A stretch of DNA of 64,000 nucleotides, taken from contig CP142735.1 of assembly GCA_036630325.1 (NCBI GenBank), positions 620,001 to 684,000 on the forward strand, in the 5' to 3' direction. Position 1 is the stretch's first letter, and each line of letters begins with the position of its first letter. Shown here piece by piece: positions 2,417-48,058 of this stretch. The DNA comes from Vairimorpha necatrix. Taxonomy: Eukaryota. The translations under genes were made by a program, and so were the position numbers. A model generated the notes under the pieces. That model worked only from the letters and a program-made list of their open reading frames with translations, made no database searches and was not told the origin of the DNA.

Positions 2417-3004
2417 TTTAATAACTAATAAGGAGTATATAAACCAATCAATTTATTCAATAAAATTGACGGCCGAGAAAAAAAAAACGAATTTTTACAC
2501 ATGTAAGTATTCATAATATCAATGCAAAATATTTTTGACATTTTAAATAAAATTACTCCTTTTAATCTTAAAATATTTAACCGAATACAAACTTTATTAA
2601 TAAATATATGGTTTGTGATATCAATCTTCTAACAACAGCATCTAACATACCAAATAATAATTTTAATTATAAATAAACCCTGTAGTTAAAACATTTAAAA
2701 TATTGTAGTAAAACAGCCTTGATGCAATAAATTAATTACAAAATCGCTAAAAAACAAGAATTATGTACATTTTTTTTAAATAAAATAAAGACAACATATA
2801 TGGAACCTCTTACATCATACTGTTTTTTATCGCATGCTGAGAATACACGATCTAATTTAAATTTCATAGGAATCCAAAAAATTATCTTTTTCTATGATGC
2901 TCTTCTAAAAAAAAAATTTCGTTACATGTTTACACGGGGTTACTTATGTATCAAATAATGAATTACACTGAAATTTTGTTTTTTTTCTGTCCAAAACAAC
3001 AGTT

Positions 3005-14277: not shown

Positions 14278-15117
14278 TTCATAATTCTACATGGTAGTTT
14301 ATTACTTAAATTGCATGCCCATTAATAGCTCGAATCATTCACCATTTATATGTCCTTATGCTGTTTTCCAAACCTCTGTAGGATCTCGCTCCTTACTGTT
14401 TCAAAAGTCTCTTTTCTGACAGCACTACAGATATCCTCTGTTATTCTGATATATTTGTTTTACTGATGCCTTCAAGTACTACTGCAAATTCACTGTGCTG
14501 TCTACAGATAGTTGTTAGCTTTTTCCTGTTCATTTTAGACTACAGCAGAAAAGGCCTTTTACGTATCCTCATGCATTAGTTTTAAAATAAAACTGTTCTC
14601 AGCGAGAAGCTTACTATCATTGTTAAATAGATCATGGTTTGTTACATAAACTCTTTCATGAGTCTGTATTCCTAATATAGAGTAAGTTGAATTTTTTCAC
14701 TGCTCAACTTGCCCATAAATAGTACAAAAAAAGCGACGACAAGAAATCTTTTTAGATTTTTGCGATCTTCTTATGCAATAACGTTTTTATTCCTAATTTT
14801 ATCTCAATGTGCCTCCTTCTCGCCGTGGCTTGTGAGAATTTACATATTTATTAAAAATATTCAACATACTAATTCACGTTAATAGTTATAAATGATCTAC
14901 AGAGCTGTAGGCTTTCTTTACATCTGGCCAAATTGTCTTCAGTTTGTATACCAGCTCCTTTTTGCAGCTATTTTAGTCAAAACTTGTTCTTTTGCACGTT
15001 GGGCTTGTTTAATTGTCCCCAATGACTCTCTGCTAGTAACATTCTACTTTCTACAGTTGACTGCATTACTTTCGTAGTATGTTTATAAAGGTTTGATATA
15101 CAGGTAATAGGCCTGAA

Positions 15118-15909
15118 GGTGCCCTTAGCACAGTGGTAGAATGCAATGTATCCATTGAGCAATGGCTGGGTTCGATTCCCAGGGGCACCAAAATTGTTTC
15201 TACTTTCTATGATGCAGTTGGAACAACTCAGATGATGAAAATGTCCACGATAATCATTAAGTTGATTCAATAAAACTTGTGTGTGTCTAGCCACAGGCGG
15301 ATTAGCATCTAGTGTAGAAACGCACTTCAAAGCCAAAAAGCAGTATCACCCTTTGGGGACTTAATGATACATAAAAGTATCAAATGGGTAAGGCCTAGTT
15401 AGAGCCCATGGCTAGTGCACTCTAGAGTGGGATCCTAGAGCTAACTAAAAGACTAGACGATGTAGGGCAATAGAAGGTCTCGTGGTCCCTATCCTACAAG
15501 ATTCTGTAACACGGTGGCCGAAACTAGTGGGAGACTGGTGGTCAACGCAGCCCACTAAAAACGCCGGCTGGTGATGTGGTCGTGTAAGGAGCCGTGTGTG
15601 TAATACAGATGATTATAGGAACCTTTGAGTCAGTACGATGATGTCTCTCCTCGGGTTATAGATAACCATGCCCGTTAAGTATATCGGCCGTGAGGTCACT
15701 CCGGACGCGATTTGAGGTATAAATGGAAAGTGTTTTCCTGGAGCCAAAGTCCAATGGATACGGCTTAGCTTGCTGCACCGGCAAGTTGAATGGAGGGAGT
15801 TTTAGTGAGTAAGAATCATACAGTACCAGTTGAATGAGGATCACACCCAAATCCCTCTGGTCCCTATGTAAGGTTTCTCCCTACCTCTTCCTTGCAAGGA
15901 AAAAAAAAA
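15118..15909 (+). mobile_element. tRNA-headed SINE-like retroelement, full length (copy 1)
   Basis: Head 15118-15190 has an acceptor-like stem GGTGCCC/GGGCACC, A-box TAGCACAGTGG and B-box GGTTCGATTCC. A10 tail. TSD AATAGGCCTGAA (15106-15117) / AATAGGCTTGAA (15908-15919). The empty site is visible in the LINE copy near 5181. Confidence 0.85.
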
Positions 15910-17316
15910 TAGGCTTGAAGTCATTGCCACTAACGGGATACCTTTGGGTATTAAATAAGTAATTCCCTCGTAGAATTAAGCTTCGTGGGGTTCCACATCC
16001 AGTAATATTCCCTTAAAAATTTTGTAAAGAAATAAGTTTTATTTCCCCTTTCTTAATAAAGAGATTAAAAAATCCACAAACTGCAGTCTTCAATTCGGAA
16101 ATATTAATTACAAGTATGATTTAAAAATCCAATTATTGAATTTTTTATAGTCCAACTTTGCATTTTTAAGTCCACTTTTTTGAAAAAAATAACAAAAACC
16201 CAAATTTTAATATAAAAACTAATCAATAAAATTATGTGTCAAATAATATACAACCTCATTTAATTAGATAAACTCGTTTTTCTACTTTGCTATTTCAAGC
16301 CATACTAACATATTAGTGTAGAATCCATTGCACGAAAGGCTAAAATCATCGTATAGCACTTGTTCCAAATCTGTTTCTACTGTATCATTTGAGTTCCGTA
16401 TAGCACAAAACCTTGATTTTATCATAGAAAAAAATTCTTCTATGGGATTAAGCTGTGAGGAATATGGAGGCAAATTCATAAGATATGCCTCACTCTCCTT
16501 AGCTTACCCATTACTTCTATTGAATGATGAAATTTAGCATTTCCTTTAAAAAAATCTTTTGAGGATTTGTTTGGAAAAAACTACAAGCTGCCTTTCAATA
16601 AATTCGACGAATAGTGCATATAATATGACCCCTCTTTTCATTTCGTATGCTATAAGATTTGATTTCGAAGTCTCGCATAAACTCCAATTTTTGCCTCGAT
16701 TTGCAGAGACTGTTGTAAATGCTTTTTTTATTTTTGTATGACAACCAATAATGCCTCGTGGTATGAGCATTAATCCATTTTTATCCGAAAATATCAAATT
16801 TTCTAGTGAATATCTGATATTTCCATGGCAAAAACAGCTCTTTTATCAATTTTGTCTTGCAAATTACACTCTGCAAGAATTGGAGATAGTCTTTTTCTCG
16901 TAATATTAAGATATTTATACTTTATTGAAATAGTCAAAAAAGACATTTAAACATTTGCTATTGTATTTAGTTCTTCTTTGATTCAACCAGAAGTCTTGTA
17001 ATTTATAAGTGCAATGATGTTTTTAAGCACAAGGTCGATAGGCCTTAATACTCTAGGACAGGGGTCGGCAACGAAGCGCCCGTTTTCATTTTTCATATTG
17101 AGAAGAAATTTAAAAATTTATAATTTCAATTTTTTGAAAAAAATTTGATCAATTACATTTTTAATGCTAAATATTGGGAGTACATTATAAGGAGTTAATC
17201 TACTTTTCTTTAAGCAAAAAGACCTTTCAACAAAAATTTTCATACATATGATGATTATAACAATAAACTTATATATTTAAATTATAAAGTTCTTTAATAT
17301 TTATTTTGACAATAAT

Positions 17317-26114: not shown

Positions 26115-27977
26115 ATGGAGAGAGAATTCAAAACACTTCAATTTGAAAATCTTTATTACGACGTGCCAAATGTCAATCCAAATATAAATGGTCCATACGC
26201 CGAGATTTTAAAATCCTTATCTGGCGAAATTATATCTGGGAAACTTACAGCTGTGCTTGGTTCTAGCGGATGCGGTAAAACTCATTTTCTTAAAATGCTT
26301 GTTGGAGATATAAGTGGAAAATCAAAAACATTCGGTAAAATTTTATGTAATAGCGAAGAAAGAGATCCAGAAGGATGGAAAATGAAGTTTTCGTATGTTC
26401 CTCAGGATGATATATTTTATCCTGACTTATCGATTTATGATCATATGAAATATTATATGTCACTTGGTGAAGCAAAATATCGGGAATTTGACGAACGTAA
26501 GGCCGACAAAATACTTGATGGATGCGCAATATTGCATAAAAAACATAGTCTTATTGGTGCACTCTCAGGAGGTGAACGCAAGCGAGCTTTGATCGCTATC
26601 TCTATGATTAATGATCCAGAAATTTTGATTTTAGATGAACCTACAACTGGGTTAGATTCAAATACAGCATTAGAAATTATTTACACCTTAAAAAAATATG
26701 CACAGAATCATAATTGTACGGTTATATCTACAATTCATCAACCTGGTGCCGGTCTTTTCAGCTACTTTGATGATTTAATTGTATTAGTTAAATTAGGAGT
26801 ATTTTATAATGGCCCAAATAAAAAATTAGAATCTTTTTTGGTTGAAAATGGGATCTCTACAGAATCAGAGTTATCATTGCCTGAATTATTGTTCGTTATT
26901 ATATCTGATCATTCCCTTCTTCCCGAAACTAAAAAATATAAATCGATTGTTAAGAAAATCATTGAAAAAAATAAGCAATCATGTAGAAATGAAAATACTG
27001 CTGAAATATGCAATAACTACAAGACTCTCACTTTTAAACCTAAATTATATGATAGTTGGAAGATAATGAAACATTCCTTTGATACTACCTATAACAAAAA
27101 CAAATCATATTTTGGTTTCGTTTTAATGACTTTTTGGACAATCTTATTAATTTTATTGGAGCCAATTGTGCAATTCCTTATTTCCCTTCAATTTAATTGT
27201 TTAGAAATCAATGAAGAATTGAAACAATGTTCTTACAATCAAATATTTGGGTTTAGCTTAGCTTTAGTTAATCATCTATATAATTTATCTCATATTGTTT
27301 GGTTTCTTTATGCATACACAAGTGTATAGAAGTACAACGAGTATTTTGCTCCTGAATATTTAAACGGCAAATACACATATGGTACGTATTTTATGGCAAT
27401 GCTCTACTATTCTCTAATAAGAACTTTTATGTTCTTTTTTCCTAGGTTCTGTTTTTATCTATTGATTTATAGAAATTTTATGTTCAATTCTCTAATATTT
27501 TTAATTTTTACTATTTCTACAATTATTAATATTTTTTTATACACTTGTATGTCTATTGCAATTGAATATAATCCTGTTTTTTTCACTATATATATGATGA
27601 TAATACTATCACCACAAGTTATTGGCGATTTGGTGTTTAAACTAAAATATGACGATAAACTTACGTATGTGTTATCAAGCATCCCAATATTAAATTATAG
27701 ACTCTTTTTAAAAATGAGATGTTTTGGATTAGCCGAAAAATTTCGTAATAAGACTGCGATTCTTGAATTTCTGAAAAAAACATGCGTTAAAGAAATTATC
27801 TATTGCTCATATGAAGAAGGTACAGAAAATACAATTATTTACAACAAATTCGGCAAATGGGCGGATTTCATTATCGTTTTTAGTACATTCCGAACTTGTT
27901 TATTTTTGACTAGTATTGTAACATTGCTTTACAAAATCAACAGGATTCCTAACATGAGATTTAAATTATCAAAATAA
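26115..27977 (+). pseudogene. ABCG half transporter with an in-frame TAG (27327-27329) replacing Trp
   Basis: ORFs 26115-27329 and 27393-27977 are in the same frame. The intact paralogue reads NVWKYNEY where this copy reads SV*KYNEY. Confidence 0.9.
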
Positions 27978-29482
27978 TAAATTCAACCTAAATCTTTTTT
28001 CCAATACTTCTAATCTGATGTTATACATCACACATTAAATTGACCCAGTCGTTTAAATATTTAAACTCTATTTTATGATACAAAAGGGAGGACCAGGAAT
28101 TCATACTTATTTTCACTTTTATCCTATTTATTAATAGAATCAACATTTATGTTTCAAATACTTTTTTTAAATAAATAGAAGGATTATACATGGAATATTT
28201 TTAAAAAATTCCATGAAGTTTCTAATGAAAGTCATTAAAAAGGTGAATTTTGGCCGGTATTACTGATGGAGATGAATACCAGGAAAGAAAATTTTTTAAA
28301 CTGTATATAACTTGACTTATTTGACATCAGAACCAAAAAAAACTATTATAGAAATTAAATCTTAATGGTATGGATTGCATCTTTTAAAATAGGTAGTATA
28401 AAGATTTAAATGTTGTTTTTTAAATGAAATAAACACCTCTTACACGATAAAAATTGCATCATCATACAAAAGAGGTGAATTTATTGTTATGCAAGATAAA
28501 TACGTTATAACGACAATAAAAGGTTATGTAATTTTATTCAAAAAATTGAATATAATTTTTTTTTAAACATAAAAAACTATTTTTATTGTCATTTAACAAT
28601 TTTTAAGAAACCCTTTTGCTGCACTTTCTACATATACATTCTTATTCTCAAAACAATCTTTATTTGTTCTATAATATTAAATTATACTTTTGATAACTTT
28701 TTTGCATATTTAGTTATTATTGTTGTTTTATAACATAACAATTGGTTAATAAATATTTATTATATTTCAGAGCTATTCAATTTGAAAATAGAAACAAAAT
28801 CTAAATAATCTAAACTAATATTTCATTGGAAATATCTACTATAGATTTTGCACGTTTGAACAAAAAAGATGTTTTTTTATGTAATTATATATATTGGTTT
28901 TTTTTAGTATCGTATAATTAACAAATGAAATAAATTGTTTATTATTAAAATCTATTATTTAATTAAACAACATGTTAATGACTAATATAGAGGGAGACAA
29001 ACAGTTGTGAAATTGAGTGATTACAGTGGGCAAGAATACAAAAGAAGACTAAAAACAGAAATTTTGATGTATTCACTGGATTTAGATATGATTTATAATG
29101 TGTTGTGTAAGGAAGAATTTTTAAGAGATATAACAGGACGAAAAAATATATGAACTGTGATTTAAGTGAGGAAGGAAAGCTAAAAAATTAATAAAAATGA
29201 AATTACAAAATTAGATTGAAAATTTTTTTGCGAGAAAAACTAAAGAGCTACAAAAATTCAAAGAAAAATTAATATCTTTAATGAGACAACGATAAATAAA
29301 AGAGAATAAAAGGGAGTTGTTGCATTGTGATAGAACCCGAACACTGCTATTACTAGAATTTTGAGGAAGCAAAAAAATATGATTATAATAAAAATGTCAG
29401 TATTTTTTTAAGGAAGCTAGGCCAAAAGTTCTTCTCAAACTAATAATAAAAGTGTATGTTAACCATTTATTTATTAAGGGTT

Positions 29483-30463
29483 CTAAACCCTACATCCCCC
29501 CTCCAGACGGGTAGTCTCTCCATCTTCTAAACAACTCTTCCTTATCTCTTTCAAATCATAATGCCTCTTTTTAACAATTTTACCATCCAGTAGTCTCACA
29601 ATATATGAATCATTTTCACTTATAGCTACGATCCTTCCGCGACCCGTGAATCTTCCCTTGTCTGTTTTCGCACGTGTACCTAAATTTTCTCTCCTAGCGA
29701 TTCTTACCTCTTGGCCTACTGTAAATGTCTCTCTGTGTCTTCTCTTGAACCGACCAGCATATTTTCCATTTTCATCATTTTCAATTATAACTTCAGCAGT
29801 TTGATCTCTCCACGCTTCCATCGGCGTACATTTTATTGCTGTATGTAGTGTATTATTATATCCTTTGATTGCTCTTTCTATCTTTTCAGAAATATTCCCA
29901 TCATTTTGCTTTATCAATGTCTCTCTTATAGTTCTGATGCATCTCTCGATTCTACCATTACTCCTATGAGCTTCTAAGCCCACTTTCCTATGTTTAATAT
30001 CATTAATACTACACCATTCTTTAAATCTATTACTTACAAACTCTTTTCCGTTGTCTGTCACATATTCCTCTGGAAATCCATCTTCCCTTATCCACTTTTG
30101 TAATACCTCTATAACTTCACTACTCTCTTTACATCTCAAATTCGAACCCCACAACCTTCTAGTAAAGTAATCAATACCCAGTAACACATACCTATTCTCT
30201 CCACCTATGTCCATTAAATCCAACGCCACTTTCTCCAATTTCTTTCTAGTTACTACGAAATCACATCCTCCTGTGTTTTTCCTATTGTTAATCCCACATA
30301 TTTCACAATTCTTAATTACCTTATTAATATGATCTTTCATACCAGGCCAATACCATCTTTGTTTAATGTTATAATAAGTGCCTTTGACACCTCTATGGTT
30401 TAACTCCTCATGTACTCTTGTTATTTCATGTTCTCTACTATCTAGGCTCAATATCTCTTTCAC
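29483..30463 (-). CDS. Integrase portion of pol (HHCC, DDE), stop codon inside the 3' LTR
   Basis: Motifs HEELNH..CEIC, ALDLMD, TDNGKEF and NGRIER. Separated from RT-RH by a frameshift near 30520. Confidence 0.9.
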   Translation of the reverse strand: MKEILSLDSREHEITRVHEELNHRGVKGTYYNIKQRWYWPGMKDHINKVIKNCEICGINNRKNTGGCDFVVTRKKLEKVALDLMDIGGENRYVLLGIDYFTRRLWGSNLRCKESSEVIEVLQKWIREDGFPEEYVTDNGKEFVSNRFKEWCSINDIKHRKVGLEAHRSNGRIERCIRTIRETLIKQNDGNISEKIERAIKGYNNTLHTAIKCTPMEAWRDQTAEVIIENDENGKYAGRFKRRHRETFTVGQEVRIARRENLGTRAKTDKGRFTGRGRIVAISENDSYIVRLLDGKIVKKRHYDLKEIRKSCLEDGETTRLEGGCRV

Positions 30464-30506
30464 CTCACCTGTGGAAAATTCCCAATACTGTTTACCGTCC
30501 TTTTCT

Positions 30507-31853
30507 TTAATATGTTTCTGCTTTTCCCAAAATTTGTTTTTCGATCACTTCTTTTCTCTTGTTGTCCTTTTCTTTTTGTTCATCCGAAACTTCTACCTGA
30601 TCATACTGCCTGCTTAACGCATCTGCATCTGTCATCAACTCCCCTTTCACATACTCTATTGTAAAGTCAAACTCTTGTATCTGTTCTACCCATCTGTTTA
30701 TTCTGTTATTATTGAAGTATGGCTTATTTCTGATCTCTACTAATGCTTTATGATCCGTCATCAAATGAAATTTCCTTCCTCTCAAATCACTTTCAAACTT
30801 CTTTATTCCAAAAAACACCGCCAACATCTCCTTCTCACTTATCGTATATCTTCGCTCGGTAGGAGTCAACATTTTCGATGCCCATTGTATCGGAATCCAC
30901 TCACCCTCTTTATTTTCTTGTAATAGAATTGCTCCGATCCCCGTATCACACGCATCAGTTCTTACTCTAAATAGCTTTTTTCCGTCCGGAATCTTCAACT
31001 TTTTCATATCTCTCAAGCCTTGCTTCATATCCTCAAAAGCTCTTTCCATATCCTCCGTCCAATTCCACTTAACATCTTTCTTTAAAGCCTCAGTAAGCCT
31101 TACTGTTCTATACGCATAGTTGGGAATAAAGTCTCTAAACCAACCAGTTAGTCCTAAAAATCTTCTTAACTCTCTAACATTCTCAGGTTTTCTATATTCC
31201 AATGTCTCCTGCTTTTTAATCTCATTCGGTCCCATGACCTCCCCATTAATTGTTACTCCCAGCAACATCACCTCTTCTTTTTTGTATTGTATCTTTGTTT
31301 GGTTTATTCTCAACCCACACTCTTTAAACTTTTTAATTACCCTCTCTAGTAACTCGTCATGCACTCTTACGTCTTTACCATGAATAACTATATCATCCAT
31401 ATATACTTCCACGCCTTTACCTCTGAATTCATCTAAAACTCTGTTCATTACTCTCTGCATTATATGAGGCGAATTCTTAAACCCCATAACCATACTATTC
31501 CATTCGTATACTCGACCATTCACTTCAAATGCTGTTTTGTGCTTATGGTGCTCCTCAATCTCAATATGATAAAACCCTTCTTTTAAGTCGATAACCGTAA
31601 ATACTTTTGACCCCTGTGTGGCTCTCATAATATCCTTAATTAACGGTAGTGAGTACGGGTCCTTGTCAACCAAATCGTTTAACGCCATCAAATTGCTTAC
31701 CAATCTTACGTCCCCATTTGGTTTTTCAAGTGCTCTTATTGGACTCCTCCACTCACTTTTGGAACGTCTTATAACCCCTCTATTTTCCAACTTATTCAAG
31801 TACTCCTCAAATTTCACCCTAAGGTAGTATGGCACATTCTGCCCTCTTTTCAC
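30507..31853 (-). CDS. Reverse transcriptase-RNase H portion of pol
   Basis: Motifs IDLKEGFYH, MGFKNSP, YMDDIVI, TDACDTG and TDHKAL. Confidence 0.92.
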   Translation of the reverse strand: MKRGQNVPYYLRVKFEEYLNKLENRGVIRRSKSEWRSPIRALEKPNGDVRLVSNLMALNDLVDKDPYSLPLIKDIMRATQGSKVFTVIDLKEGFYHIEIEEHHKHKTAFEVNGRVYEWNSMVMGFKNSPHIMQRVMNRVLDEFRGKGVEVYMDDIVIHGKDVRVHDELLERVIKKFKECGLRINQTKIQYKKEEVMLLGVTINGEVMGPNEIKKQETLEYRKPENVRELRRFLGLTGWFRDFIPNYAYRTVRLTEALKKDVKWNWTEDMERAFEDMKQGLRDMKKLKIPDGKKLFRVRTDACDTGIGAILLQENKEGEWIPIQWASKMLTPTERRYTISEKEMLAVFFGIKKFESDLRGRKFHLMTDHKALVEIRNKPYFNNNRINRWVEQIQEFDFTIEYVKGELMTDADALSRQYDQVEVSDEQKEKDNKRKEVIEKQILGKAETY

Positions 31854-31906
31854 AACCTTTTCACCTTGCTTCCTATTTATTGGACACTTCTCTCCTGTGA
31901 GATATT

Positions 31907-32506
31907 TTATCTTTTCTTTTCTTCTGATTCTTTAAAAACTTCCGGATACTTTTCAATTAAATTTTCTAACTTATTTACTGTTTTACATCTTTTCCCTTCA
32001 TTGTTGATAATTGGTTCTTTCTGTAAAACTTGTTCCTTTTTAATTTTATATTTTTCCCTACCAGCTACACTTTCATGACATTCTCTAGCGTAATGCCCTT
32101 CTTTCTTACATATAAAACATTTTGTAGTTTCTCTGATTTCTCTTCTATTCCTATACATCCTAAGATTTTCTTTTCTTTCTTCCCTAAACTCTTTCAACAC
32201 TTTATCCATAATCTCTTTAATCATTTCTTGTCTTTCTTCTGACTCTCTCTCAAATTCTGCTCCTTTTTGTAAGCCTTTATAAATTTCCTCCCAACTGCTC
32301 CTTCCGTCACAAAAATTTTCAAAAATATAATCCTGCAAGTTCGCAGATGCCAAATCCATAACATCTTTCCACTCAACTTTCTCAACTTTCAATATTAACT
32401 TTAGTCTCTTATCTATCCTAATTGCCTCTTTCTCTAATGTTCTAGCCTCTTGACTACGGGACTCTCTTGTTTCCCTGTTCATCCTTGTGTTCGGCATGTT
32501 AACCAT
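31907..32506 (-). CDS. Gag with CCHC zinc knuckle; ATG inside the 5' LTR; no protease motif before RT
   Basis: CFICKKEGHYAREC is followed directly by the pre-RT linker LIEKYPEVF. Confidence 0.85.
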   Translation of the reverse strand: MVNMPNTRMNRETRESRSQEARTLEKEAIRIDKRLKLILKVEKVEWKDVMDLASANLQDYIFENFCDGRSSWEEIYKGLQKGAEFERESEERQEMIKEIMDKVLKEFREERKENLRMYRNRREIRETTKCFICKKEGHYARECHESVAGREKYKIKKEQVLQKEPIINNEGKRCKTVNKLENLIEKYPEVFKESEEKKR

Positions 32507-33012
32507 TTATTTATTAAGGGTTCTAAACCCTACAGTGTATAAAATATTGTAAAGGGTAAAGTTAAAGTTACGAAGACAAAAATATCTTTTGTTGGCGACT
32601 AGGAGATAAAAAAGGCAATCTTAAGATAATTTTAAAGAAGAATCTAGAGAGATCTTTGTCGAAGAAAATAGGAAGATGCTCTTATAAATTAAAAAATGCA
32701 AAATTATAACTTGAAATGTCCTGAGGTTTTTAGGAAAAGGATAGAATAACACAAGCTTGAATAAATGATCTTGTAACTTATCTAAGAAATTTAGAAAAAA
32801 AACAATTTTTTAAAAGATTTAAATCTAATTGATTAAATTGGTTAGAGCACATCGAAAGCCTAATGGAAACATGTAATTTGTAAGATACTTATAGTATTTA
32901 AATCATATGGTAAAAGTGGAAGAATTTAAAGTGTCGAATACCCTAGATATATTTATAGTAACACAGACGATCGTTTTGTCGTTGTTAAATCTTAAAAATA
33001 GATTTTTTTTTT

Positions 33013-36204: not shown

Positions 36205-37470
36205 GGGGTGAAGGATACTTTAGACCCCCTTTGAAGCGCTTCAATTTTTTTTTCGAACCCCAAAATTGAAGTGCAAAAAAAAAGAGGAGCAAGAAAGGGA
36301 CAAAAATTTCTTATCACTTTAAACATTAAAAATACAAAATAATTATATATTCAGATACAAAATGTTATTAGAAACCAAGATATATTTATCAAAAACACTT
36401 TTTTATTATATTTATGAAGGGATTATTAGGATAATTTCTTTTAAAAGTAAAAAAATTAAGAAATAGATTTCATCTTTTTCAGTCCGATATCTTGCAGGAA
36501 TCACTCTTTTTACACCAGCCCATGTTCCTTCAATTGTGTTGGTATGAACACCATTCTCGGGATTTATAAAACCAAGGGAATGGTTAACAGTATAGTGTTC
36601 GTATAAGCCTAATTGATTTAAATTTATATACCCTCTCCAACAATCAGTATAAATAATACTTCCGGGATGTACATATTCTTTTATTAATCTTTCGAGAGTC
36701 ACGGCTTTTCTATTTTTAACTTTAATTAAGACTAAGCCTTGTTCTGTAGTCCTTTCCACCATCCCAAGTATCCATACGCCGTCAACTTTGTGGCCTTTGT
36801 TGTATTTTCGCTTTCCGAATTTAGATTCGTCAATCTCCACATTTATACCTGGACCTCCTATTTTTTTATTACCAGTTATATGCTTATTTAAGTTTCTGAA
36901 AATTCTATAAATTGTTTTTCGATTGAAACTATGAATTTTTTTAATAGTTTTTATGGCCGTATTTTCAACAAAAAGAAATATGACCTGGCATATTATCAGC
37001 CAAGGTAATTTAGCTCCATGAAAAGGTTTCTTGTTTGTTATCGTAAATTCTTTTCTGCACCTTTTTGATGTACATCTCACTTGATTTTGTATTCCTATAC
37101 GTCTTTGTACATTCCCATAACAAAGTGGACAAAACCTTGAATTTAAAGTAGATATAATTACTTCCTCAAGTATTTTCTCAACGTCCTTGTATATTTCTGT
37201 CATTTTTAAGGGGAAAAAATGAAAATTATCATAAAATAAAAGAATTTGAATTTAGTTTGAAATTTTAAGTAGACACTTTTTATTTTTAGATATTGGTATA
37301 AAATTTAATTTTAAGTCGTTTTATATAATTATTTTGTATTTTAATGTTTAAAGTGATAAGAAATTTTTGTCCCTTTCTTGCTCCTCTTTTTTTTTTGCAC
37401 TTCAATTTTGGGGTTCGAAAAAAAAATTGAAGCGCTTCAAAGGGGGGGGGGTCTAAAGTACCCCACCTCC
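36205..37470 (-). mobile_element. Merlin/IS1595 transposon with ~145-bp TIRs
   Basis: Long inverted repeats (36205-36350 / 37322-37470) and 8-bp TSD CATTATTT. Confidence 0.92.
36412..37203 (-). CDS. Merlin/ISXO2-like DDE transposase, 263 aa (extreme C-terminus possibly frameshifted)
   Basis: Zinc ribbon CPLC..C..C, VEIDESKFGKRKYNKG, YTDCWRGY and HTNTIEGTW. CCCC lies before the ATG. Confidence 0.9.
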   Translation of the reverse strand: MTEIYKDVEKILEEVIISTLNSRFCPLCYGNVQRRIGIQNQVRCTSKRCRKEFTITNKKPFHGAKLPWLIICQVIFLFVENTAIKTIKKIHSFNRKTIYRIFRNLNKHITGNKKIGGPGINVEIDESKFGKRKYNKGHKVDGVWILGMVERTTEQGLVLIKVKNRKAVTLERLIKEYVHPGSIIYTDCWRGYINLNQLGLYEHYTVNHSLGFINPENGVHTNTIEGTWAGVKRVIPARYRTEKDEIYFLIFLLLKEIILIIPS

Positions 37471-37754
37471 CATTATTTGTTTCCTATTCTGAACAAATAC
37501 TCTGTGGACTGATGGTTTCCCATCAGTCCGAGAAGAATGTTTTAAACTAATGTTTTTATTATTCTTCATCTTCATACCCCAAGGGTATGATTTTCTTTTA
37601 TATTTATAGGCGGGAAAATATTGTACATTTTCCCTCCATAAACATAGTTTGGTAAAGGAGGAGAATACTTATAGAATAGTATTCTCTAGTCTCCAGGGTA
37701 ATCTTAGGACCACTGGAGATCTGTCACTTGACACTCCCCCTTCTTTAGAGGCTC

Positions 37755-38210
37755 CTAGTTTACCATTTGTTGACGCGTCTTCAAGTACTTCCAGTTGATA
37801 ACGAATGCGTCATTATTTAGGCTATATAATTTATAGACTTCCTCTATTCCACCCGTAGGGATAGTAAATGACCTTTTCATTTTGTCATTTATTTTCTTCT
37901 GAATGCTTATCGGTGGTTTTCGCTTTCGTACTACGTCCCGAACTCTATGAACACTTAATTTCACATTGTCTTTAACTTTTCCCTTTTCATTTCTTGGTTT
38001 CTTCCGCGAGTAAGCGATAGATGTATAACGAAGCATTTCTTTTTCGTCGGAGTCTTTCCGCCATCCATTTATCATTTTAATAGATCTAAATTGTCTATTT
38101 ATAAGCTCCGGTAGCATACTGCCCCTGTAAATTTTTTTCCTCCTTTTTTTGTGAGGTATATGTTCTCTGCCTTTCCCCCAGGTATTTAGCTGTAGGTATT
38201 TTAACTCCAA
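37755..38210 (-). CDS. ORF ending in a diverged integrase C-terminal (GPY/F-region) segment
   Basis: VRDVVRKRKPPISIQKKINDKMKRSFTI..INWKYLK aligns with VVLRRKPLIKIKNKLDSKFEGPYTI..VNWKDLK of the inner element. Confidence 0.55.
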   Translation of the reverse strand: MELKYLQLNTWGKGREHIPHKKRRKKIYRGSMLPELINRQFRSIKMINGWRKDSDEKEMLRYTSIAYSRKKPRNEKGKVKDNVKLSVHRVRDVVRKRKPPISIQKKINDKMKRSFTIPTGGIEEVYKLYSLNNDAFVINWKYLKTRQQMVN

Positions 38211-38235
38211 TTCAAAGTTTGTAAATACGGGTGGA

Positions 38236-39042
38236 TCATGTAATTTTTGTATTAAATGATGTGGGTAAAACTCTTTTTTTTTTACTTCTGTTTAGTTTTC
38301 CCTTGTCATTACAAATTACCATGTCACTGAAAGATGCTTTGATTGGAGCGACCGGGAGAGTAAACGTCGATACAGTTTCTTCCTCTCCAGTTTTACTCAA
38401 AAGCACTTTGGGCTTGACTCTTATCGCTTCCCTTTGACCTAATGGTCTCCTATGTTGGATGCACTTAGATTCCGGACAATACTTTAGCTCATCTATAACA
38501 TTGCTACTACTAAAGCTTAAGTTTTGGTCTTTAATATGGAAAGCCTTCGAATGTACTATGGCAAGTTTATTACTTTTTTCTTTTCCTTCTTGAAAGTAAT
38601 TTTCTTTTACAATGTCTGTTAGATGTGTTTCGGATATTTTTCCCGTTGTGCAGACAGATTTCGTTGTTATAGCGCCATCTATTTTATCAAACCTTTTGAG
38701 TAGATTTAGTTTCTTGGCATCTACTATGCCAATTATAAAGTCTTCCGGTAATTTATCTATTACGTGAGCCTCGATCATTTCATTTTTCTTGATCTTGGGC
38801 CTCTTTATAAAGACTTGTATTTTTCCTCCTGATTTGACCTGGCCCCCTATTCCTTCAACCGTAAGAGTTTCTTTTGTTGGCTTTAATTTCAGTTTTTGAA
38901 TCATTGTTTTACTAATGAGATTCACTTGAGATCCGGTATCAATAAGAGCGGAAAATTTTATCGTTCCCGAATATAGATTTATCCTCGGGCGGATATCTTG
39001 TAGTTTAGTAGTTGATTTCATTTCTCCTATCCTTAAAAGCAT
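38236..39042 (-). CDS. Retropepsin protease plus unknown C-terminal region
   Basis: Motifs ALIDTGSQVNLI, GIGG flap and DFIIG. Confidence 0.85.
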   Translation of the reverse strand: MLLRIGEMKSTTKLQDIRPRINLYSGTIKFSALIDTGSQVNLISKTMIQKLKLKPTKETLTVEGIGGQVKSGGKIQVFIKRPKIKKNEMIEAHVIDKLPEDFIIGIVDAKKLNLLKRFDKIDGAITTKSVCTTGKISETHLTDIVKENYFQEGKEKSNKLAIVHSKAFHIKDQNLSFSSSNVIDELKYCPESKCIQHRRPLGQREAIRVKPKVLLSKTGEEETVSTFTLPVAPIKASFSDMVICNDKGKLNRSKKKRVLPTSFNTKIT

Positions 39043-39050
39043 GGCAGAAT

Positions 39051-39641
39051 TTACTTGTTCTGCTTTTTCTCCACAAATTTTATTATCTTTTTTTTTTGTG
39101 AGATAGCTTCATAAGATGGTTTTCTACTAAATGTTTTCTTTTTGTTTAAATGATAATTTATAAGAGTTTGTTTGTTCTCAACTAATTCCAGCAATTCTAA
39201 CCAATCTTTCGTTTCTTCAATAGGCTCCTTCAACTTATCAGGGGAGTTCCTTCCTATAGAAATCTTTGATCTGGCAAAATATTCAGGGTTTCCTTTTGCA
39301 TATCTTTTGAGGTCATAGGCGTAATTTAAAATGTCGCTTTCCTTTGGACCTTCCACATATAGATGCATGAACCTACCTGCTATATCTTCTGTTAGTTTCT
39401 CTTTTAAATACTTTTTTTTAAACTGGGTTTTGAATGAATCATAGTCTGTAATTTCATCACCCTCGAACGCTTTGAACCATGTTAACGCCTTGCCTTTAAG
39501 TTTAGATTTGGCAATATCTAGCGTTTTATCTTGCGTATACACATCCTCAATTTCGCGGAACTGAGTTAAAAAATCTTCGGCTTGTTTTAGATTTTCGCCG
39601 TTAAATTCTGTCCACCTCTTGCTCAGACATATTTTCTTCAT
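39051..39641 (-). CDS. Retrotransposon Gag (N-terminus cut off by the nested insertion; continues at 43654-43780)
   Basis: Clear paralogue of Gag 39805-40713 (FREIEDVY, KLKGKAL). Confidence 0.85.
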   Translation of the reverse strand: MKKICLSKRWTEFNGENLKQAEDFLTQFREIEDVYTQDKTLDIAKSKLKGKALTWFKAFEGDEITDYDSFKTQFKKKYLKEKLTEDIAGRFMHLYVEGPKESDILNYAYDLKRYAKGNPEYFARSKISIGRNSPDKLKEPIEETKDWLELLELVENKQTLINYHLNKKKTFSRKPSYEAISQKKKIIKFVEKKQNK

Positions 39642-39647
39642 GTGGGT

Positions 39648-42600
39648 TGTCAGGGGACAGATCTCCGGTGATACTAAGATTACCCTGAAGATCTGAGAAT
39701 ACCATGCTGTAAGTATTCTCCCTCTTTACATGTATAATTTTTGAAGGGAAATTGGTGATATTTTCCCGCCTAAAATTATAAAAGAAAATCATGCCCAGAA
39801 GGGTATGAAGAATAATAAAAACATTAGTTTAAAACATTCTTCTCGGACTGATGGGAAACCATCATTCCACATTGGTGGTAACGGTGAAGAGGATAAGATG
39901 GATGAGATCGAGGACATCTGCTCTTACATGAAAAAACTATGTCTCCAAAACAGATTGACAGAATTTACCTGCGAAGATCTAAGTAAAGCCGAAGACTTTC
40001 TATCTCAGTTCAGAGAAATTGAAGACGTTTATTCACAAGCCAAGACGCTAGATATTGCCAAAACCAAACTGAAAGGCAAAGCGTTAAGATGGTATAAGGC
40101 TTTCGAGGGTGAAGAGATAACAGACTTCGAGACGTTCAAATCCCAATTCCAAAAAAAATATATAAAGGAGAAACTAGTGGAGGACAACACTGATATGTTT
40201 ATGCACCTATATGTTCAAGGTCCAAAAGAAAGCGATATTATAAGTTACGCTTATGACCTAAAGAGGTATGCTAAGAGAAACACAGAGTACTTTGAAAGAT
40301 CAAAGATTGCCATACTAAGAAACTCTGTGGATGCTTTAAAGGAGCCAGTCAACGATACTCAAGACTGGATAGAGTTATTAGAACTACTAGAAGAAAAAGA
40401 AACTTTTATAAATAATTACATAAAGAAAAGAAAAAACTTATTTAGGAAGCCACAACAGGAAACACCTTTACAGGAAAAAAAAGAATATAGAACTATAAAC
40501 AAGAAATCAGTTCAGATAAATTCGAATTCATCATTACTCCTGAAAATAGGTAAAGTGGAAACAAAAAAAAATTCAACAGATATCCGAGCCAGGATAAATC
40601 TTTTTTCAGATAAAGAAAAAATTGCTGCGCTAATTGACACCGGAGCCGAGATTAACTGCATAAATTTGAATAAAGACCAAGCATTAGGGTTAAAACCAAA
40701 AAAGAGGCGATGACCATAGCAGGAATAGGAGGTAAAGTGAAGTCAGAAGGGATAGTAGAATTTCTAGTAAAAAATCCTAAGACCAAAAAAACAAAAGTCT
40801 TGAAGGCACACGTAGTCGGTAATCTACCAGAAGACCTAATAATTGGCCTAGTAGATATCTTGAACTTAAACTTACATAAAATACTGGATAAAATTAAGAG
40901 TACCAAAATATAAAAATCTATCTGCACTACAACGGCGAAAGCATCCGAAATTCAAATAGCAGATGTTGGAGAAGAAGATATGACAGAGAATGAAAAGGGA
41001 AAATTCATTAAAGTTATTTCAAAACATCCCGATGTATTTTCTGATAATAATCAACAATCGTGCTTAGACATTGAGCATGCGATTGAAATAACAAATGACT
41101 TTTCAGAGGTAAAGAATATTCAATTTAGAAGATCGCCGGAACAAAATGAAATAATCGAAAATAAAGTAAAAGAATTCCTAAGTAAAGGATTCATTGAGGG
41201 TAGTGAGTCAGACTATACTTCTCCGGTAGTGCTTGTAAAAAAACCGAATGGAGATACACGATTTTGTATAGACTATAGGAGACTCAATAAAATTACAAAG
41301 AAGATGATTTACCCAATCCCACTCGTAGAAGAAACCATAGAAGAACTTCAAGGAGCGTCCATATTTACAGTTTTGGACTTGGAATCAGGATACCATCAAA
41401 TACGAATTCGAAAAAAAGATAGGCATCTAACAGCTTTCAGAAGTAGATCAGGAACTTTCCAATGGGTTAGAATGCCATTTGGGCTGGTAAATGCACCTTT
41501 TACATTCCAGAAAATAATGAACTCGATATTATCTCCCTACTTACATAGATTTGTACAAGTTTACCTGGACGATATAATGATATATTCGAAGTCAATGGAA
41601 GAGCACCTAATACACGTAGAAGCGGTTTTTAAAATACTAAACAAACTGAAACTGAGGGTTAACTGCGGAAAATGTAAAATCGGAAAGAATACAGTGAAGT
41701 TCTTGGGATACACGATAAATAAAACTGGTATTAGTATACCGTTAGAACAACAGACTAAATGTCTAAATTTGAGAATTCCCACAACACTTAAAGAAACCAG
41801 AGGATTATTGGATTTATAAATTAACTTAAAAAATTTATAAGGAGCTACACAGATATAATGGCTCCTATTTACGATTGCCTTAAGAAAGGAAAATTTGAAT
41901 TCTCGGAAGAAGCCATACAAAGTGTTAAGAAAATAAAAGAGATTATTACGAGTTCTCCCGTCTTAAAGCTTCCAGACTTCACTAAGAAATTTATCTTGTA
42001 CACTGATGCATCAAACCTTTATATAGGAGCAACGCTAATGCAAGTATACGATGAGACAGAAATGCCTGTATACTTCATTTCAAGAAAACTAAATCCAGCT
42101 GAAATCAATTACACAGTAACCGAAAAAGAATGCCTGGCGATAATATGGAGCATATCTCAATTCCGTATTTATCTTACAAATACTTTTACCATTAAAACTG
42201 ATCATCAAGCACTCAAATGGCTGCTAAGTTATAAAGAAAGTACAGGAAGACTAATGAGATGGATTCTCACATTGGAAAATTACTCCTATGACATCGAATA
42301 CATAAAAGGAAAAGATAACGTTGTAGCTGACGGATTGACAAGATTTGTTCACACAGTAAAATATAAAAATGAACGAGAACTATCGCCCGAGAGTCGTAAA
42401 GAACTTATACTGAAATGCCACGAAGAATGTGGACATGGAAGCACTCTCCCAACATACACTCTAACTCTTGACCAAGCCAAATAGAAAGGCATGTATGAGG
42501 AAATAAAACAAGTGATTGGAAAGTGTCAGGTATATTTAAAATTCAATTCAAAAAGAATACCAAGAGAACACCACAGGATTCGCCTAAAAGATCCATTCTC

Positions 42601-43653
42601 ACTGGTAGGAATTGATATGGTAGGACCTCTACCTAAGTCCGAGAATGGTAAAATATATCTAATAGTCGCCACCGATTACTTGACAAGATGGTGTGAAGCG
42701 AAAGCCGTAAGAAATAAGACTTCTAAAACAGTGGCTAAATTTATATTCGAGGAGATTATATGTAGACATGGCCCACCCAATGAAATTCTTTCAGATAGGG
42801 GACTTGAATTTTTAAACAGTACGGTCAAAGAACTATGTAGAATATTTAAAATAAGAAAATCTTTTACATCAGCCTACCACCCACAATGTAATGGCACGGT
42901 AGAAAGAACCAATCAATCACTAGTGGCCAAATTGGCAACGATAATAAATGGAAGGTGGAAAGACTGGGACGAATACGTCGAACTGGCTCTATACGCGTAC
43001 AGAATTTCTCCCAGAAAAATAACAGGACTCTCTCCCTTTGAGCTATTATATGGACGAAAACCTATGACATGGGAACATCCCGAAGAAGAAACCTTATATT
43101 TGGAAGATAATTTTTTAATATTTGAAAGATTAAAGCATACTCGGGATATTATGTTACAAGCCGAGAGAGAGGCCAGAGAGGTGAAATAAAGGATGTCAAA
43201 GAACAGACACTTCAGATAGGAGACGTGGTGCTAAGAAGAAAACCACTCATCAAGATTAAAAATAAATTGGATAGTAAGTTCGAGGGCCCATACACGATAA
43301 CTAAGGTGGGTAAGAAAGGGGCATATGAAATAATAAGCCCTAATAATGAAGTGTTCTCGGTAAATTGGAAAGACTTAAAGAAGATGGACTTTGAACTAGA
43401 AACCTGGGAGCCGATAAAGAAAGGGGGAGTGTCAGGGGACAGATCTCCGGTGATACTAAGATTACCCTGGAGATCTGAGAATACCATGCTGTAAGTATTC
43501 TCCCTCTTTACATGTATAATTTTTGGAGGGAAATTGGTGATATTTTCCCGCCTAAAATTATAAAAGAAAATCATGCCCAGAAGGGTATGAAGAATAATAA
43601 AAACATTAGTTTAAAACATTCTTCTCGGACTGATGGGAAACCATCAGTCCACA
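39648..43653 (+). mobile_element. Full-length Ty3/gypsy element, 224-bp LTRs (39648-39871, 43430-43653), gag-PR-RT-RH-IN with several lesions
   Basis: TSD TGGGT, PBS TGGTGGTAACGGTGA (tRNA-Leu-like) and PPT AAGAAAGGGGGAG. Motifs LIDTGA, YLDD, TDAS, IDMVGP..SDRG and GPY. Confidence 0.95.
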
Positions 43654-44686
43654 TGGGTGATAAGACTATTTAGGTGATCGTTCAAATCCTCGTCACCTTT
43701 ACCACCATTGTGGACTGATGGTTTCCCATCAGTCCGAGAAGAATGTTTTAAACTAATGTTTTTATTATTCTTCATCTCCATACCCCCAAGGGTATGATTT
43801 TCTTTTATATTTATAGGCGGGAAAATATTGTACATTTTCCCTCCATAAACATAGTTTGGTAAAGGAGGAGAATACTTATAGAATAGTATTCTCTAGTCTC
43901 CAGGGTAATCTTAGGACCACTGGAGATCTGTCACTTGACATACTCCATGTTCATGTAATGAGGCACTATACTCCGTTTCAAGAATGGTCTTTCTAAACTT
44001 TTGTTGTTATTTGTTTGTTTACAAACAAACTGTAAAAATATTAGTATCGAAAAAGCATAAAAGGGCATGATGAGATGGAAGGTGAATACAAACGCTAAAA
44101 CAATAAAAGCATTATTTTTGAAAATACCTTTATTCTCATCGGGATGTCACTTCTCCTAGGATACGTCAATATTCTGTATTCGTTTTCTGAAGTACAGCCT
44201 ACACTATACTTAACTAAAAATTCCCGATTTCAGTTTATTTTGTCTTCGGGGCCAAAAAAAAATTTATGAAGCATTGAAAAGGAAAACCCTAAACGTCTAA
44301 ATAGGGTGTTTGGAGAAGTGATACAGACAGACGAAATGGTAATGGTAAAAAGATAATTTTTCAAATTCCATCAGAAAGTCATGACACAGTTGCTTTACAT
44401 GATTGATAGATTCAATATAAGGGCGAACATTAGAATTGAGAATCAAAATATTACCTACCCGGAAACTACTTACTATGACTTGATTTTTTAAGAAATACAT
44501 AAAATCGAAACGATTGTGTAAATGATGGGCATAAATAATGTCTTACAACATCAAATTTATCAACGGCGAACACGGCATGTAATATATGACGCCCTTTTAA
44601 AACAAAGCAGGAGAGACTACAAGTTTAATAGAAGGAGTCTGGTCATATCTTAAATGTGATTTAATAATTAGAAAGATATTAAAGAT

Positions 44687-47600
44687 TGTTAGACATATCC
44701 AAGTTAAGGGGTAGTTAATAATAAAAATATAAAGTAAACAATGACATGAGAATGTCACAACATCCCTCCCTCTATAAGAAATAATCGTCTTCGTCGATTT
44801 TTTTCAGCTGCGTAGCGTGCCTTTTACTTATTTCCCCATTACTATTGATTTCATATGTATCGTTAGTCAAAATGCCTATAACTTCTCCTGTTCCTACAAA
44901 CTTTGGCTGTCCTTTGTATTTGTGTATCTGGTCTTGTATAATGACCAAATCTCCAAGTTCTAACTTTTTATATTCAGGTTTCTTGAATAAACTCTTGTAT
45001 CTATTTATTCGGTTTTCAAAATGTTTCCTTTTAACTTCTGGGATATTTTCTAGATCTAATGCTTCTATTGGGGCCATCCCCGTTGCTCTATGACTTATAC
45101 AATTATACGCCTCAATCATCTTATCGACTCTTTTCGACAGTCTGATGCTCTTATCCTGCTTATTTATTCCTTCGCCCACAGTTCTATTAAATCTCTCTAT
45201 TCTACCATTTGAACAATGATGGTAGGGCGAGGTATTATGTTATCTTATTTTATTCTCTAATGACCAATTTCGTATCTTTTCACTTATATTTTCTTTTGCG
45301 CCGTCTGATATCAGTGTCTGTATATTCACCTTTTTGTGTACAATTTCCAAAAACATCAATATGTTATCACTACTTTTCGTCTTGAATACTTTTGCAAATG
45401 CGAATCTTGAGAAATAGTCTATAGCCGTGAATATAAATCTATCTTCTATCGGTCCTATGATGTCAAAAGCGACTTTTTCTCCGGGTTCAAATGCTTCCAC
45501 ATGCCTGAATCCTTTAATTCTCGCCGGATTATACTCTTTGCATTTATAACATCTTTTTAAAACATCTTCTACCTTCTTTAGTGTTATACTTTGATTACAT
45601 TGTTCTTTATTTATTTGTTCATGAGTAGCTTTTGCGCCTCTATGAACTAATTTTTCGTGTACCTTCATGATATATCAACAATTTCCTTTTTTCAATAACA
45701 TTTATTGTCCCGTAATGCCTCGAGAGAGCATCAACGTGCTCCAAATCGGTAGGTGTTTTGTATCGTATTATAAAATCGTACATCTGTAATCGTTCTATCC
45801 ATCTTATTATCCTGGGAGAATTTATCTCTCCCTTACAGTTTAAGGCTTCCAGTGCCTTATGATCCGTGTAAATTGTAATTTCCTTCCGAGGAGGAAATAT
45901 TTAAAAGGTTCCATTGCCCAAAGTGTGGCTAACATTTCCTTTTCTGTAATCGTATAATTTCCTTCAGCCTGCCATAATTGCCTTGAGGCGAAGGCAATAG
46001 GCCTTTCTTGCCCGTCTATTTCCTGGCTAAGTACGGCACCTAATCCCGTGTTCGATGCGTCTGTTGTTAAAACAAAGTCTCGTGTAAAGTCAGGTTGATA
46101 CAAGCATAAATCCGATATTAATGCATCTTTCAAAGTTTGAAATGCCGTTTCTTGCTCTTTTTCCCAAATGAACGGTTGTTTCTTTTTTAATAATATCACT
46201 AGTGGGTAGCATATCTTTGCGCAATCCTTTATAAATTTTCTGTAATAATTAACAATGCCTAAAAATTTTCGTACCTCATCTACATTCCTCGGGGTTGTAT
46301 ATTTTTTTATACCTTCAGTATTATCTGCCAATGGAGTTATCTTATTATATGTTATATTGTGACCTAAAAAATTTATCTCTTTTTTCATTATTTCCATTTT
46401 TTCCCTGTTTGATGAGAATCCTGCGTTGTTAAGTAGTTTACATACTCTTCCCACAGCCTTTTTATGCTTTTCAATTGTTTCAGTATATATTAGAATATCA
46501 TCCACATAGGCGAAACAACATCTCCCAATTTCTTGCTTAAGAACTTTATCAACTATTCTTTGAAATATTGCTGGGGAGATATTAAACCCCATAGGCATCC
46601 TAGTGTATTCATATGTCCTGTTTTTTATCCTGAAAGCGGGTTTCATCATGTCGTCCTCTTTTAGCTTTACCTGAAAGAATGCCTCCTTCAAATCTATCTT
46701 AGTAAAATACTTGCTTTTTCCCAGGCGGTAAATAAGCTCTTCTATCCTTGGTAGAGTATAACTATCTAGTGCCACTATTTTGTTCAGTTTGATTAAATTT
46801 ATTGTAAGCCTTATACTTCCATCTTTTTTTTCGACGGGTCTAACGTTATTTAACCACGTAGAGTGAGATTCTCTAATATAGTTGTTGGATAATAATCTCT
46901 GTATTTCTTTTTCAATTTTTTTTCCCATGCTTGGGGTATTCAATATGACTTATCTACAACCTTTTAACCATCCTCAGTATCTATATTACATTCAAATCCC
47001 TTTATTCCTTCGTTCTTCCACGCACATAATTTATTTATTTCTTCATTAAAATCGGTTACTACACTGATAGGATTTACGGTCTTTGGTGTTCTCATCCATT
47101 TACGTCCTATTATCACCGTCTTATCATTCCGCTTTGGTAAAATATAAAACTTCTCTTTTTAGCGTTCTTTGCTATGCTCAAATTCTATTTCCACATATTT
47201 ATCTATCGTAAACTCTTCTAATAGGCAGGTGTATAAAGTTATCGGCGTTTTCAATAAAGATGCTCTAATCTGCAAGAGTGCTTGTATCGGGTTTGTTATA
47301 AAACTATATTCCGATCCTGTGTCAAAAATAGCCCTAAACTGAAGACCCTTGATATAAACTAAATTTTCTTTAATAATTTCATCGACCGTTTCGACGTTAT
47401 TCAGCTGTCTTTTTTGGTCTGTTCTCGTTGCGCTGCTTGGTTTTGTATTTAGTCTTCTGAAATAAGCTTCTCTCTTAATTACCTCTATTTTCCTTATAGT
47501 ATCTAGGAATTCTTCATCAATTTTTTTAAACTTAAGTGTTGCTTGTTCACACTCCTCTCTCAACTTCCTCAATCCGAGGTAACTAATCTCTAATATAAGC

Positions 47601-48058
47601 TCATCATCATCAATAATAGCCTCTCCCAATTTTCTCATCCTTATAAAAAATTCATGACAGGTTTCTTCCTTTTTCTGGAATTCTCTCAAGAATTCTCTTT
47701 TAGATATTTTTTTGTTAAAAATGGAAAACATATATTCCTTCCATGCTTCGTAAGAAATCTTATTTAGTTTTTTATCCCTTTCTAAACGTTCATGGGCTTC
47801 GATTATAGCCACATCTGCTTTGTCCAAAATTTCCTCAATTTTTTCTTCATCCGTTAAGTATTTAAAAGCTTTCTTTCTTTCTTTCTAGTTTTTTTAAGGT
47901 GGCTTCAGATCTTTACCAGTTATTTGTATGGTGAGATCATTCAGTAACTTCACTATGTCTTGTTTTGAAATATTCTCCACCATGTTAGACATATCCAAGT
48001 TAAGGGGTATTTAATAATAAAAATATAAAGTAAACAATGAAATGAGAATGTCACAACA
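44687..48058 (-). mobile_element. Ty3/gypsy element with 76-bp LTRs (44687-44762, 47983-48058), frameshifted
   Basis: TSD AAGAT, PBS TGGTGGAGAAT (tRNA-Ala-like) and PPT GGGGAGGGA. Gag-PR (FDTGS) 47159-47827, RT-RH (YVDD) 45840-46943, IN 44772-45668. The LTRs differ at 2 sites. Confidence 0.95.

Follow-up and report, generated by a model that had tools for sequence, protein, structure and literature searches.

How short can the long terminal repeats (LTRs) of a retrotransposon become, and how little other non-coding sequence can it carry, while the element still moves? The question is raised by a locus of the microsporidian Vairimorpha necatrix, in a stretch of 64,000 nucleotides (GenBank assembly GCA_036630325.1, contig CP142735.1, positions 620,001 to 684,000 of the forward strand; hereafter the window, whose own numbering is used throughout). 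A retroelement on the minus strand of the window (29457–32534) is 3078 bp long and is bounded by LTRs of 38 bp. It had been described in an initial annotation made from the letters alone, which took the genome for a microsporidian one; a neighbouring ABC transporter, 90% identical to a V. necatrix protein, bears this out. The evidence assembled here makes it very probable that the element is a defective recent copy of a multi-copy microsporidian Ty3/gypsy lineage that presumably works by the ordinary LTR cycle.

Boundaries of the element and its empty site

The two direct repeats, at 32497–32534 (5′ LTR) and 29457–29494 (3′ LTR, minus strand; TGTAGGG...GGTTAACA in the orientation of the element), are 38 bp each, identical and terminated by TG..CA, exactly as first described. 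When the 38-mer was searched for in the 64-kb window with up to three mismatches, these two matches were returned and no solo LTR, and none of 100 shuffles gave any; a blastn comparison of the whole element with the window found only the self-match. The genome search for the 38-mer that the initial annotation had proposed was thus carried as far as the window, where the two matches are paired by a target-site duplication (TSD) of 5 bp. The duplicated letters, GTGTA, stand directly outside the element on both sides, at 29452–29456 on the left and at 32535–32539 on the right.

Logan contigs from four public runs (X1–X4) were compared with the window over 29300–32700. One X2 contig links 29450 to 32534 and omits 3083 nt, that is, the 3078 bp of the element plus 5; its depth is 18.6, against 17.6 in the single-copy flank, and it also holds the letters of the left TSD. 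As seven letters at the join fit either side, the reading of a 5-bp TSD presumes the usual TG..CA ends; so read, the skip of 3083 nt equals the element plus one copy of GTGTA. The contig without the element comes from a different strain or species, in which the site is empty, and the 3078 bp therefore form one inserted unit. The ends of the element are real, collapse of a longer LTR is excluded, and the element has been mobile.

The same runs establish that the element is multi-copy and that the repeat ends where the window shows it to end. Word depth in X1 is about 58–79 across the element versus 1.98 in the flank bin, and in X2 it is 61–1864 versus 17.6, although Logan contig depths are not copy numbers. 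Contigs terminate inside the LTR, at 29466, 32514 and 32525, because the 31-mer graph branches at the repeat boundary, and the breaks within the 3′ LTR are those expected of a branch point. In one X2 contig the end of the LTR is followed by another flank (ACCTTAAAA...).

Some flanks of other loci resemble one another. Contigs from X1/X3 and from X2 have in common the 8–9 letters GTGTATAA(A) beside the LTR, at 32535–32543 of the window, and then diverge, and a further X2 contig has a different LTR-adjacent flank, ACCTT. Judged from 17 of 33 loose ends, insertion may favour targets in which purines and pyrimidines alternate.

Coding capacity and defects of the window copy

All coding sequence of the element lies on the minus strand. 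A Gag-like frame of 199 aa (31907–32506) consists of long helices and one CCHC knuckle (32078–32119), followed by the start of the reverse transcriptase (RT) region; the second frame (30507–31853) encodes RT, with a YMDD motif, and RNase H; the third (29483–30463) encodes an integrase with an H2C2 zinc domain and an rve core. The first ATG (32506–32504) corresponds to LTR positions 29–31, inside the 5′ LTR, and the last A of that LTR opens a second ATG (32497–32495). At the other end, the TAG stop codon of the integrase frame (29485–29483) occupies positions 10–12 of the 3′ LTR. Both the gag ATG in one LTR and the integrase stop in the other had been proposed, and both hold. So does the claim that the element has essentially no non-coding sequence: 28 + 26 = 54 of its 3078 nt, under 2%, lie outside the reading frames.

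Pfam matches were obtained to RVT_1 (1.3e-31), RT_RNaseH (8.8e-31), Integrase_H2C2 (8.3e-15) and rve (9.7e-11), in the order RT-RNase H-integrase, and to zf-CCHC (2.9e-4; 21.2 bits against a cut-off of 20.8). With this domain order, a gypsy-type RNase H and an H2C2 integrase, the predicted proteins are those of a Ty3/gypsy-type LTR retroelement, and the family assignment made at the outset stands. A Pfam scan of the window copy at E ≤ 0.01 detected no aspartic protease family, and the sole occurrence of the motif D[ST]G in gag and pol falls within RNase H. About 40 residues separate the CCHC knuckle from the start of the conserved RT region. The model of the Gag-like part (pLDDT 77.9) shows long helices together with the knuckle; in Foldseek the knuckle alone resembles retroviral nucleocapsids, over 16–25 columns and at E > 3.

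The initial annotation had implied a single coding frame, which the window copy does not have: it is read in three frames, parted by two indels. At the first break (30521–30525) the window is two letters short in a homopolymer run, which shifts the RT-RNase H frame against that of the integrase; two extra letters at 30521 are present in every covering contig, with depths of 65.3/65.3 in X1, 143.4/143.4 in X2 and 4.9/4.9 in X3. The second break (31910–31914), where a short tandem repeat has one more unit in the window, adding five letters, parts the Gag-like frame from that of RT; the five letters are missing at 31910 in contigs of X1 (60.6/60.6), X4 (2.8/2.8) and X2 (308.9/479.3). Both indels thus lie in slippage-prone runs, exactly where the window changes frame. 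Two long X1 contigs differ from the window by seven substitutions over about 3.05 kb. At 32494 the window has G and the runs have C (depth 153.3/153.3 in X1, 1392.9/1392.9 in X2 and 6.12/6.12 in X3), so that the triplet after the 5′ LTR is TGG in the three covering runs and TGC in the window copy.

With two frame-breaking indels, the window copy cannot make the polyprotein. A programmed −1 frameshift at the gag/pol break was considered and rejected; no canonical slippery heptamer was seen there by eye, and the run contigs are without the five letters. In a Nosema granulosis relative (P0001, 84% identical) gag and RT share one frame, in P0002 RNase H runs into integrase without a frame change, and in a metagenomic contig described below (L005) one frame extends from gag to the LTR. 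Intact copies are about 3.08 kb long, with a single gag-pol frame of roughly 1000 codons and no protease. This frame begins 10 nt before the end of the 5′ LTR, passes through the primer-site position and the polypurine tract, and reaches its stop codon within the first 12 nt of the 3′ LTR. The window copy itself appears to be recently inserted but now defective; its indels may be real or may be errors of the assembly.

Relatives of the element in microsporidia

With the RT-RNase H frame as query, 554 protein matches were obtained at E ≤ 0.001, the nearest named ones belonging to Nosema granulosis, Vairimorpha apis, V. necatrix, Pseudoloma and Nematocida; some matches are named ‘Tf2’, ‘reverse transcriptase’, ‘endonuclease’ or ‘krab-a domain-containing protein’. 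A comparison of longer proteins listed 120, and 48 of the 50 top-ranked were at least 40% identical. Many of these 48 have 996–1045 aa and are encoded on contigs of 3.03–3.16 kb (such as a protein of 1010 aa on 3079 nt and another of 1014 aa on 3077 nt), and the contigs of relatives exceed their open reading frames (ORFs) by only 25–100 nt. Close counterparts are proteins of N. granulosis annotated as ‘Retrovirus-related Pol polyprotein’ (P0001, P0003 and P0004) and unnamed proteins of about 1000 aa (P0122–P0158) on contigs of about 3.1 kb. Their RT-RNase H parts are 47–85% identical to that of the window element, and they agree with it in domain order; gag and pol share a frame in them and a protease family is absent, a comparison made from the proteins alone, with LTRs seen only in L005.

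None of the 48 listed matches at or above 40% identity carries an aspartic-protease Pfam family. The two protease-bearing entries of the top 50 are arthropod proteins with 31–32% identity, and among the unnamed matches listed protease families start at 39% identity. Retropepsin families were found at E ≤ 1 in none of eight relatives scanned; the sole sub-threshold peptidase match, to Peptidase_A17 (E 0.068), covers residues 483–590 of P0122, which belong to its RT/RNase H part.

The ends of one relative could be read. L005 is a contig of 3024 nt, filed under a bacterial metagenome-assembled genome (MAG), whose protein is 76% identical to that of the window element. After a purine tract it has 38 nt of which 29/38 are identical to the window LTR, and an unrelated flank follows; the limits of this LTR are set by homology only, its 5′ LTR being absent from the contig. 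Within the 38 nt, ATG stands at position 29, AATAAA at position 24 and CCC at position 15, and the end is TAACA. The protein starts of other relatives agree with such a border. Met-Ala or Met-Gly N-termini, which are expected if a CA|TGG junction lies within the frame, occur at the expected place in 9 of 13 aligned relatives, and five of these nine have an additional Met 3–6 residues earlier.

Among the family matches the microsporidian genera Nosema, Vairimorpha, Nematocida, Enteropsectra, Pancytospora and Pseudoloma are represented, and Anncaliia is added by a published table. Taken jointly with the structural reading of the element, we consider it highly likely that the family is a multi-copy, microsporidia-specific lineage of Ty3/gypsy type that is widespread in these organisms. 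Further metagenomic loci with 56–59% identity (L001–L003) are truncated, nested or decayed copies without a readable LTR pair; L004, a weak match of 26%, was not used, and L006 is decayed. A scan of viral_contigs gave no relatives. Microsporidian retroelement contigs, L005 and L006 among them, were found binned as Clostridium sp., Turicibacter sp., Bacteroidales, Bacilli and Aeromonas; such retroelements in bacterial MAGs are bin contamination from gut or water metagenomes.

Signals overlapping the coding frame

The polypurine tract reported in the initial annotation was found as GGAGGGGGGA at 29495–29504 (minus strand); it adjoins the 3′ LTR and is translated within the C-terminus of the integrase. 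L005 has GGAGGAGGGGA at the same position. The primer-binding-site position (32483–32496, minus strand) follows the 5′ LTR directly, within the coding frame; it reads TGCCGAACACAAGG in the window and starts with TGG in three runs.

The LTR contains the letters AGGGTT-TAG-AACCCT, CCC at position 15 and AATAAA at positions 20 and 24, all of which had been pointed out. CCC precedes the first ATG by 14 nt, a distance at the edge of what has been reported for genes of N. ceranae. The hairpin that was proposed for the first motif survives as letters and not as a fold: at −5.9 kcal/mol (z −0.24), 78 of 200 shuffles were at least as good, and it was rejected as a functional signal. A 5-bp stem is present at the corresponding place of L005, and none is visible in the LTR of Anncaliia algerae. 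Self-priming of the kind known from Tf1 was rejected as well, the duplex between LTR and primer site (−5.5 kcal/mol) being matched or surpassed by 302 of 500 shuffles.

The window contains a tRNA-Met-like gene (15118–15190) with an encoded CCA end. It lies within one copy of a duplicated segment (4339–5306 / 14278–16033), the copies of which are about 9.9 kb apart and 73–87% identical.

Proposed model of replication and alternative explanations

In the ordinary LTR cycle, by which the lineage most likely works, transcription would start inside the 5′ LTR, a few nucleotides upstream of the ATG at LTR position 29, giving a short leader in keeping with the very short leaders of microsporidian transcripts. 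Polyadenylation would follow AATAAA at LTR positions 20–29, near the end of the LTR. So divided, the LTR would have an R of ~10–15 nt and a U3 of about 20 nt, with hardly anything left for U5. Priming would be by a tRNA at TGG, and the integrase would make the 5-bp duplication. The 38 bp may plausibly accommodate promoter, R and poly(A) signal together.

The polyprotein might act uncleaved, or after cleavage by the protease of co-resident protease-bearing gypsy families, and we make no choice between the two. In a more radical version of the first case, a Gag-knuckle-RT-RNase H-integrase protein would work on its own RNA in the manner of a LINE, lacking a protease of its own and a capsid shell; strand transfer would go through an R of some 10–15 nt within the 38-bp LTR, and start codon, primer site, purine tract, stop codon and poly(A) signal would all overlap the coding frame. 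We think this rather unlikely. Should it nevertheless be true, the least that an LTR must contain would be less than was known before.

Several observations weigh against this explanation, beside the limits that apply to contig depth and to the ends of L005. The triplet at the primer site of the window copy is TGC, not TGG, and the window's one tRNA, tRNA-Met, fits the primer site no further than TGG. A promoter would have hardly any space in an LTR of 38 bp, and transcription may depend on flanking DNA. A Foldseek comparison of the Gag-like part with the PDB gave no match to a capsid fold at E ≤ 0.001, which is a weak negative. The lineage has no protease. With neither a protease nor a matched capsid fold, it may not be autonomous.

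These last points lead to the alternative that survives best, in which the lineage is a dependent element, contributing only its own RT and integrase and mobilized by the protease, perhaps also the Gag, of co-resident protease-bearing Ty3/gypsy families. Neither the window copy nor its relatives have a protease, the Gag-like part amounts to helices and one knuckle without a capsid-fold match, and potential helpers are at hand in the window, where RVP_2 is encoded by an element with 76-bp LTRs and Asp_protease_2 by an ORF at 38236–39042. However, intact protease-less frames of ~1000 aa have been kept across distant microsporidia, and a long-lived parasitism on unrelated helpers would be needed in each of them (the RT of the neighbouring element is 37% identical). 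We regard dependence as a serious possibility, though less probable than not.

The window copy could also be aberrant, a deletion derivative that keeps 38 bp at each end in a family whose LTRs are normally of ordinary length, as the other gypsy elements of the window, with LTRs of 76, 224 and 231 bp, might suggest. This is very improbable: high-depth contigs of four runs agree with the window across both inner borders of the LTRs and branch at the two outer borders, the empty site omits exactly 3083 nt, and little sequence beyond the ORF is found on the contigs of relatives (25–100 nt). Moreover, the relative with 76% identity has the same 38 nt, and one in A. algerae has 50 bp. An assembly artefact, whether a chimeric join or longer repeats that were collapsed, can be given next to no weight, for although homopolymers and short tandem repeats are error-prone in long-read assemblies, so that the frameshifts are possibly errors, independent short-read-derived contigs of four studies have the same internal sequence and LTR borders and one shows the flanks without the element; the collapse that the initial annotation had named as a possible refutation is therefore not borne out.

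Comparison with known retroelements

For the compact Ty3/gypsy lineage favoured here, the nearest published parallel is found in A. algerae. Supplementary Table S1 of Parisot et al. 2014 (PMC4202319) lists 50 complete LTR elements of this species, with four LTRs under 100 bp (45, 50, 73 and 90 bp), and in 43 of the 50, as we count them from it, the ORF begins within the LTR. The element ‘Aalg retro L’ has an LTR of 50 bp and an ORF at 32–3049 in a total of 3127 bp, and in its consensus the LTR end GTTAACA is followed by TGGCG; a single polyprotein in A. algerae is noted in the main text (PMC4202319). The passages of that text at hand make no comment on LTR length.

In what the table and consensus give, ‘Aalg retro L’ is like the window element in being a Ty3/gypsy element with a single ORF, in its length (3127 vs 3078 bp), in an ORF start within the LTR (position 32 of 50), in the GTTAACA end followed by TGGCG with ATG across the border, and in having AATAAA and CCC in the LTR; the junction is identical once the TGG of the runs is substituted for the TGC of the window. 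It differs in its LTR of 50 rather than 38 bp, in an ORF that ends 28 nt before the 3′ LTR rather than inside it, and in having no visible GGG..CCC hairpin in the LTR; it also comes from a distant genus. By its length, the single frame of its relatives, an LTR of at most 50 bp that contains the start codon and a ..TAACA end followed by TGG, the window element fits into a compact single-ORF lineage of microsporidian gypsy elements of the ‘Aalg retro L’ type, as defined by these sequence features.

On the sequences compared, 38 bp is the shortest LTR documented here, a slightly more extreme case and not a new category. Its novelty had been overrated in the initial annotation, as LTRs of 45 and 50 bp were tabulated for A. 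algerae in 2014. What limits the novelty further is that single polyproteins were recorded in the same year, while short LTRs are not discussed in the parts of that publication at hand. Literature phrase searches found no discussion of such short LTRs, and no case below 85 bp. The LTR of the Bombyx element mag is 77 bp.

Other known systems resemble the window element in part. Tf1 and Tf2 of Schizosaccharomyces pombe are Ty3/gypsy elements in which gag and pol likewise share a reading frame. Tf1 encodes a protease, its LTRs are some hundreds of base pairs long and it primes itself with its own 5′ end, whereas the window element has no protease, and pairing between its LTR and primer site is no better than in shuffles. 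Very short terminal repeats, TG..CA ends and a 5-bp TSD are also features of the SMART/TRIM elements of plants, as in FRetro129, a non-coding element of 292 bp with 85-bp repeats (PMC3281118). As described there, however, such elements are non-autonomous and non-coding, while the window element codes for RT, RNase H and integrase and has repeats of less than half that length.

Elements of this kind matter for annotation. The default minimum LTR length of LTRharvest is 100, and structure-based finders used at this setting skip them, as had been predicted for finders with a minimum of ~100 bp. Elements that are missed or misnamed in this way distort the repeat content and gene counts of microsporidian genomes. 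A mobile element with 38-bp LTRs, no protease and under 2% non-coding sequence is also a natural test of the minimum sequence that an LTR cycle needs, and of whether Gag-Pol processing is dispensable. With regard to genome compaction, the streamlining of microsporidia acts on the parasites of these parasites too.

Other mobile elements in the window

The window is a repeat-rich and gene-family-rich stretch. A second compact gypsy element (44687–48058, minus strand) measures 3372 bp; its TG..CA LTRs are 76 bp long and its TSD is AAGAT. The purine tract GAGGGAGGGA adjoins the 3′ LTR, and the 5′ LTR ends in TCTAACA followed by TGGTGGAG, with ATG across the border. It encodes an RVP_2 protease (E 2.5e-4), RT-RNase H and integrase in several broken frames, and its RT and the RT of the 38-bp-LTR element are 37% identical.

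Two further gypsy elements form a nested pair. The inner one (39648–43653; 4006 bp) has 224-bp LTRs, the TSD TGGGT and a gag ATG (39805) in its 5′ LTR. The outer element (37503–43940, minus strand) has LTRs of about 231 bp and the TSD TACTC, measures ~2.4 kb apart from the insert, and includes the protease ORF at 38236–39042.

A unit of 1821 bp at 55854–57674 has GC-rich terminal inverted repeats of ~40 bp (TGTC...GACA) and ATATT on both sides. The 429-aa protein that it encodes (56107–57396) contains an integrase core, and its H2C2 match is weak and sub-threshold (E 7e-4; 20.1 bits, where the cut-off is 25.5). These features suggest a Ginger-like DNA transposon with an integrase-type transposase. 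An ORF at 36412–37203 encodes a DDE transposase of Merlin type (IS1595-like). Interspersed with the transposons are several ABC-transporter paralogues, at 986–2416, 6882–8749, 26115–27329 and 53455–55305.

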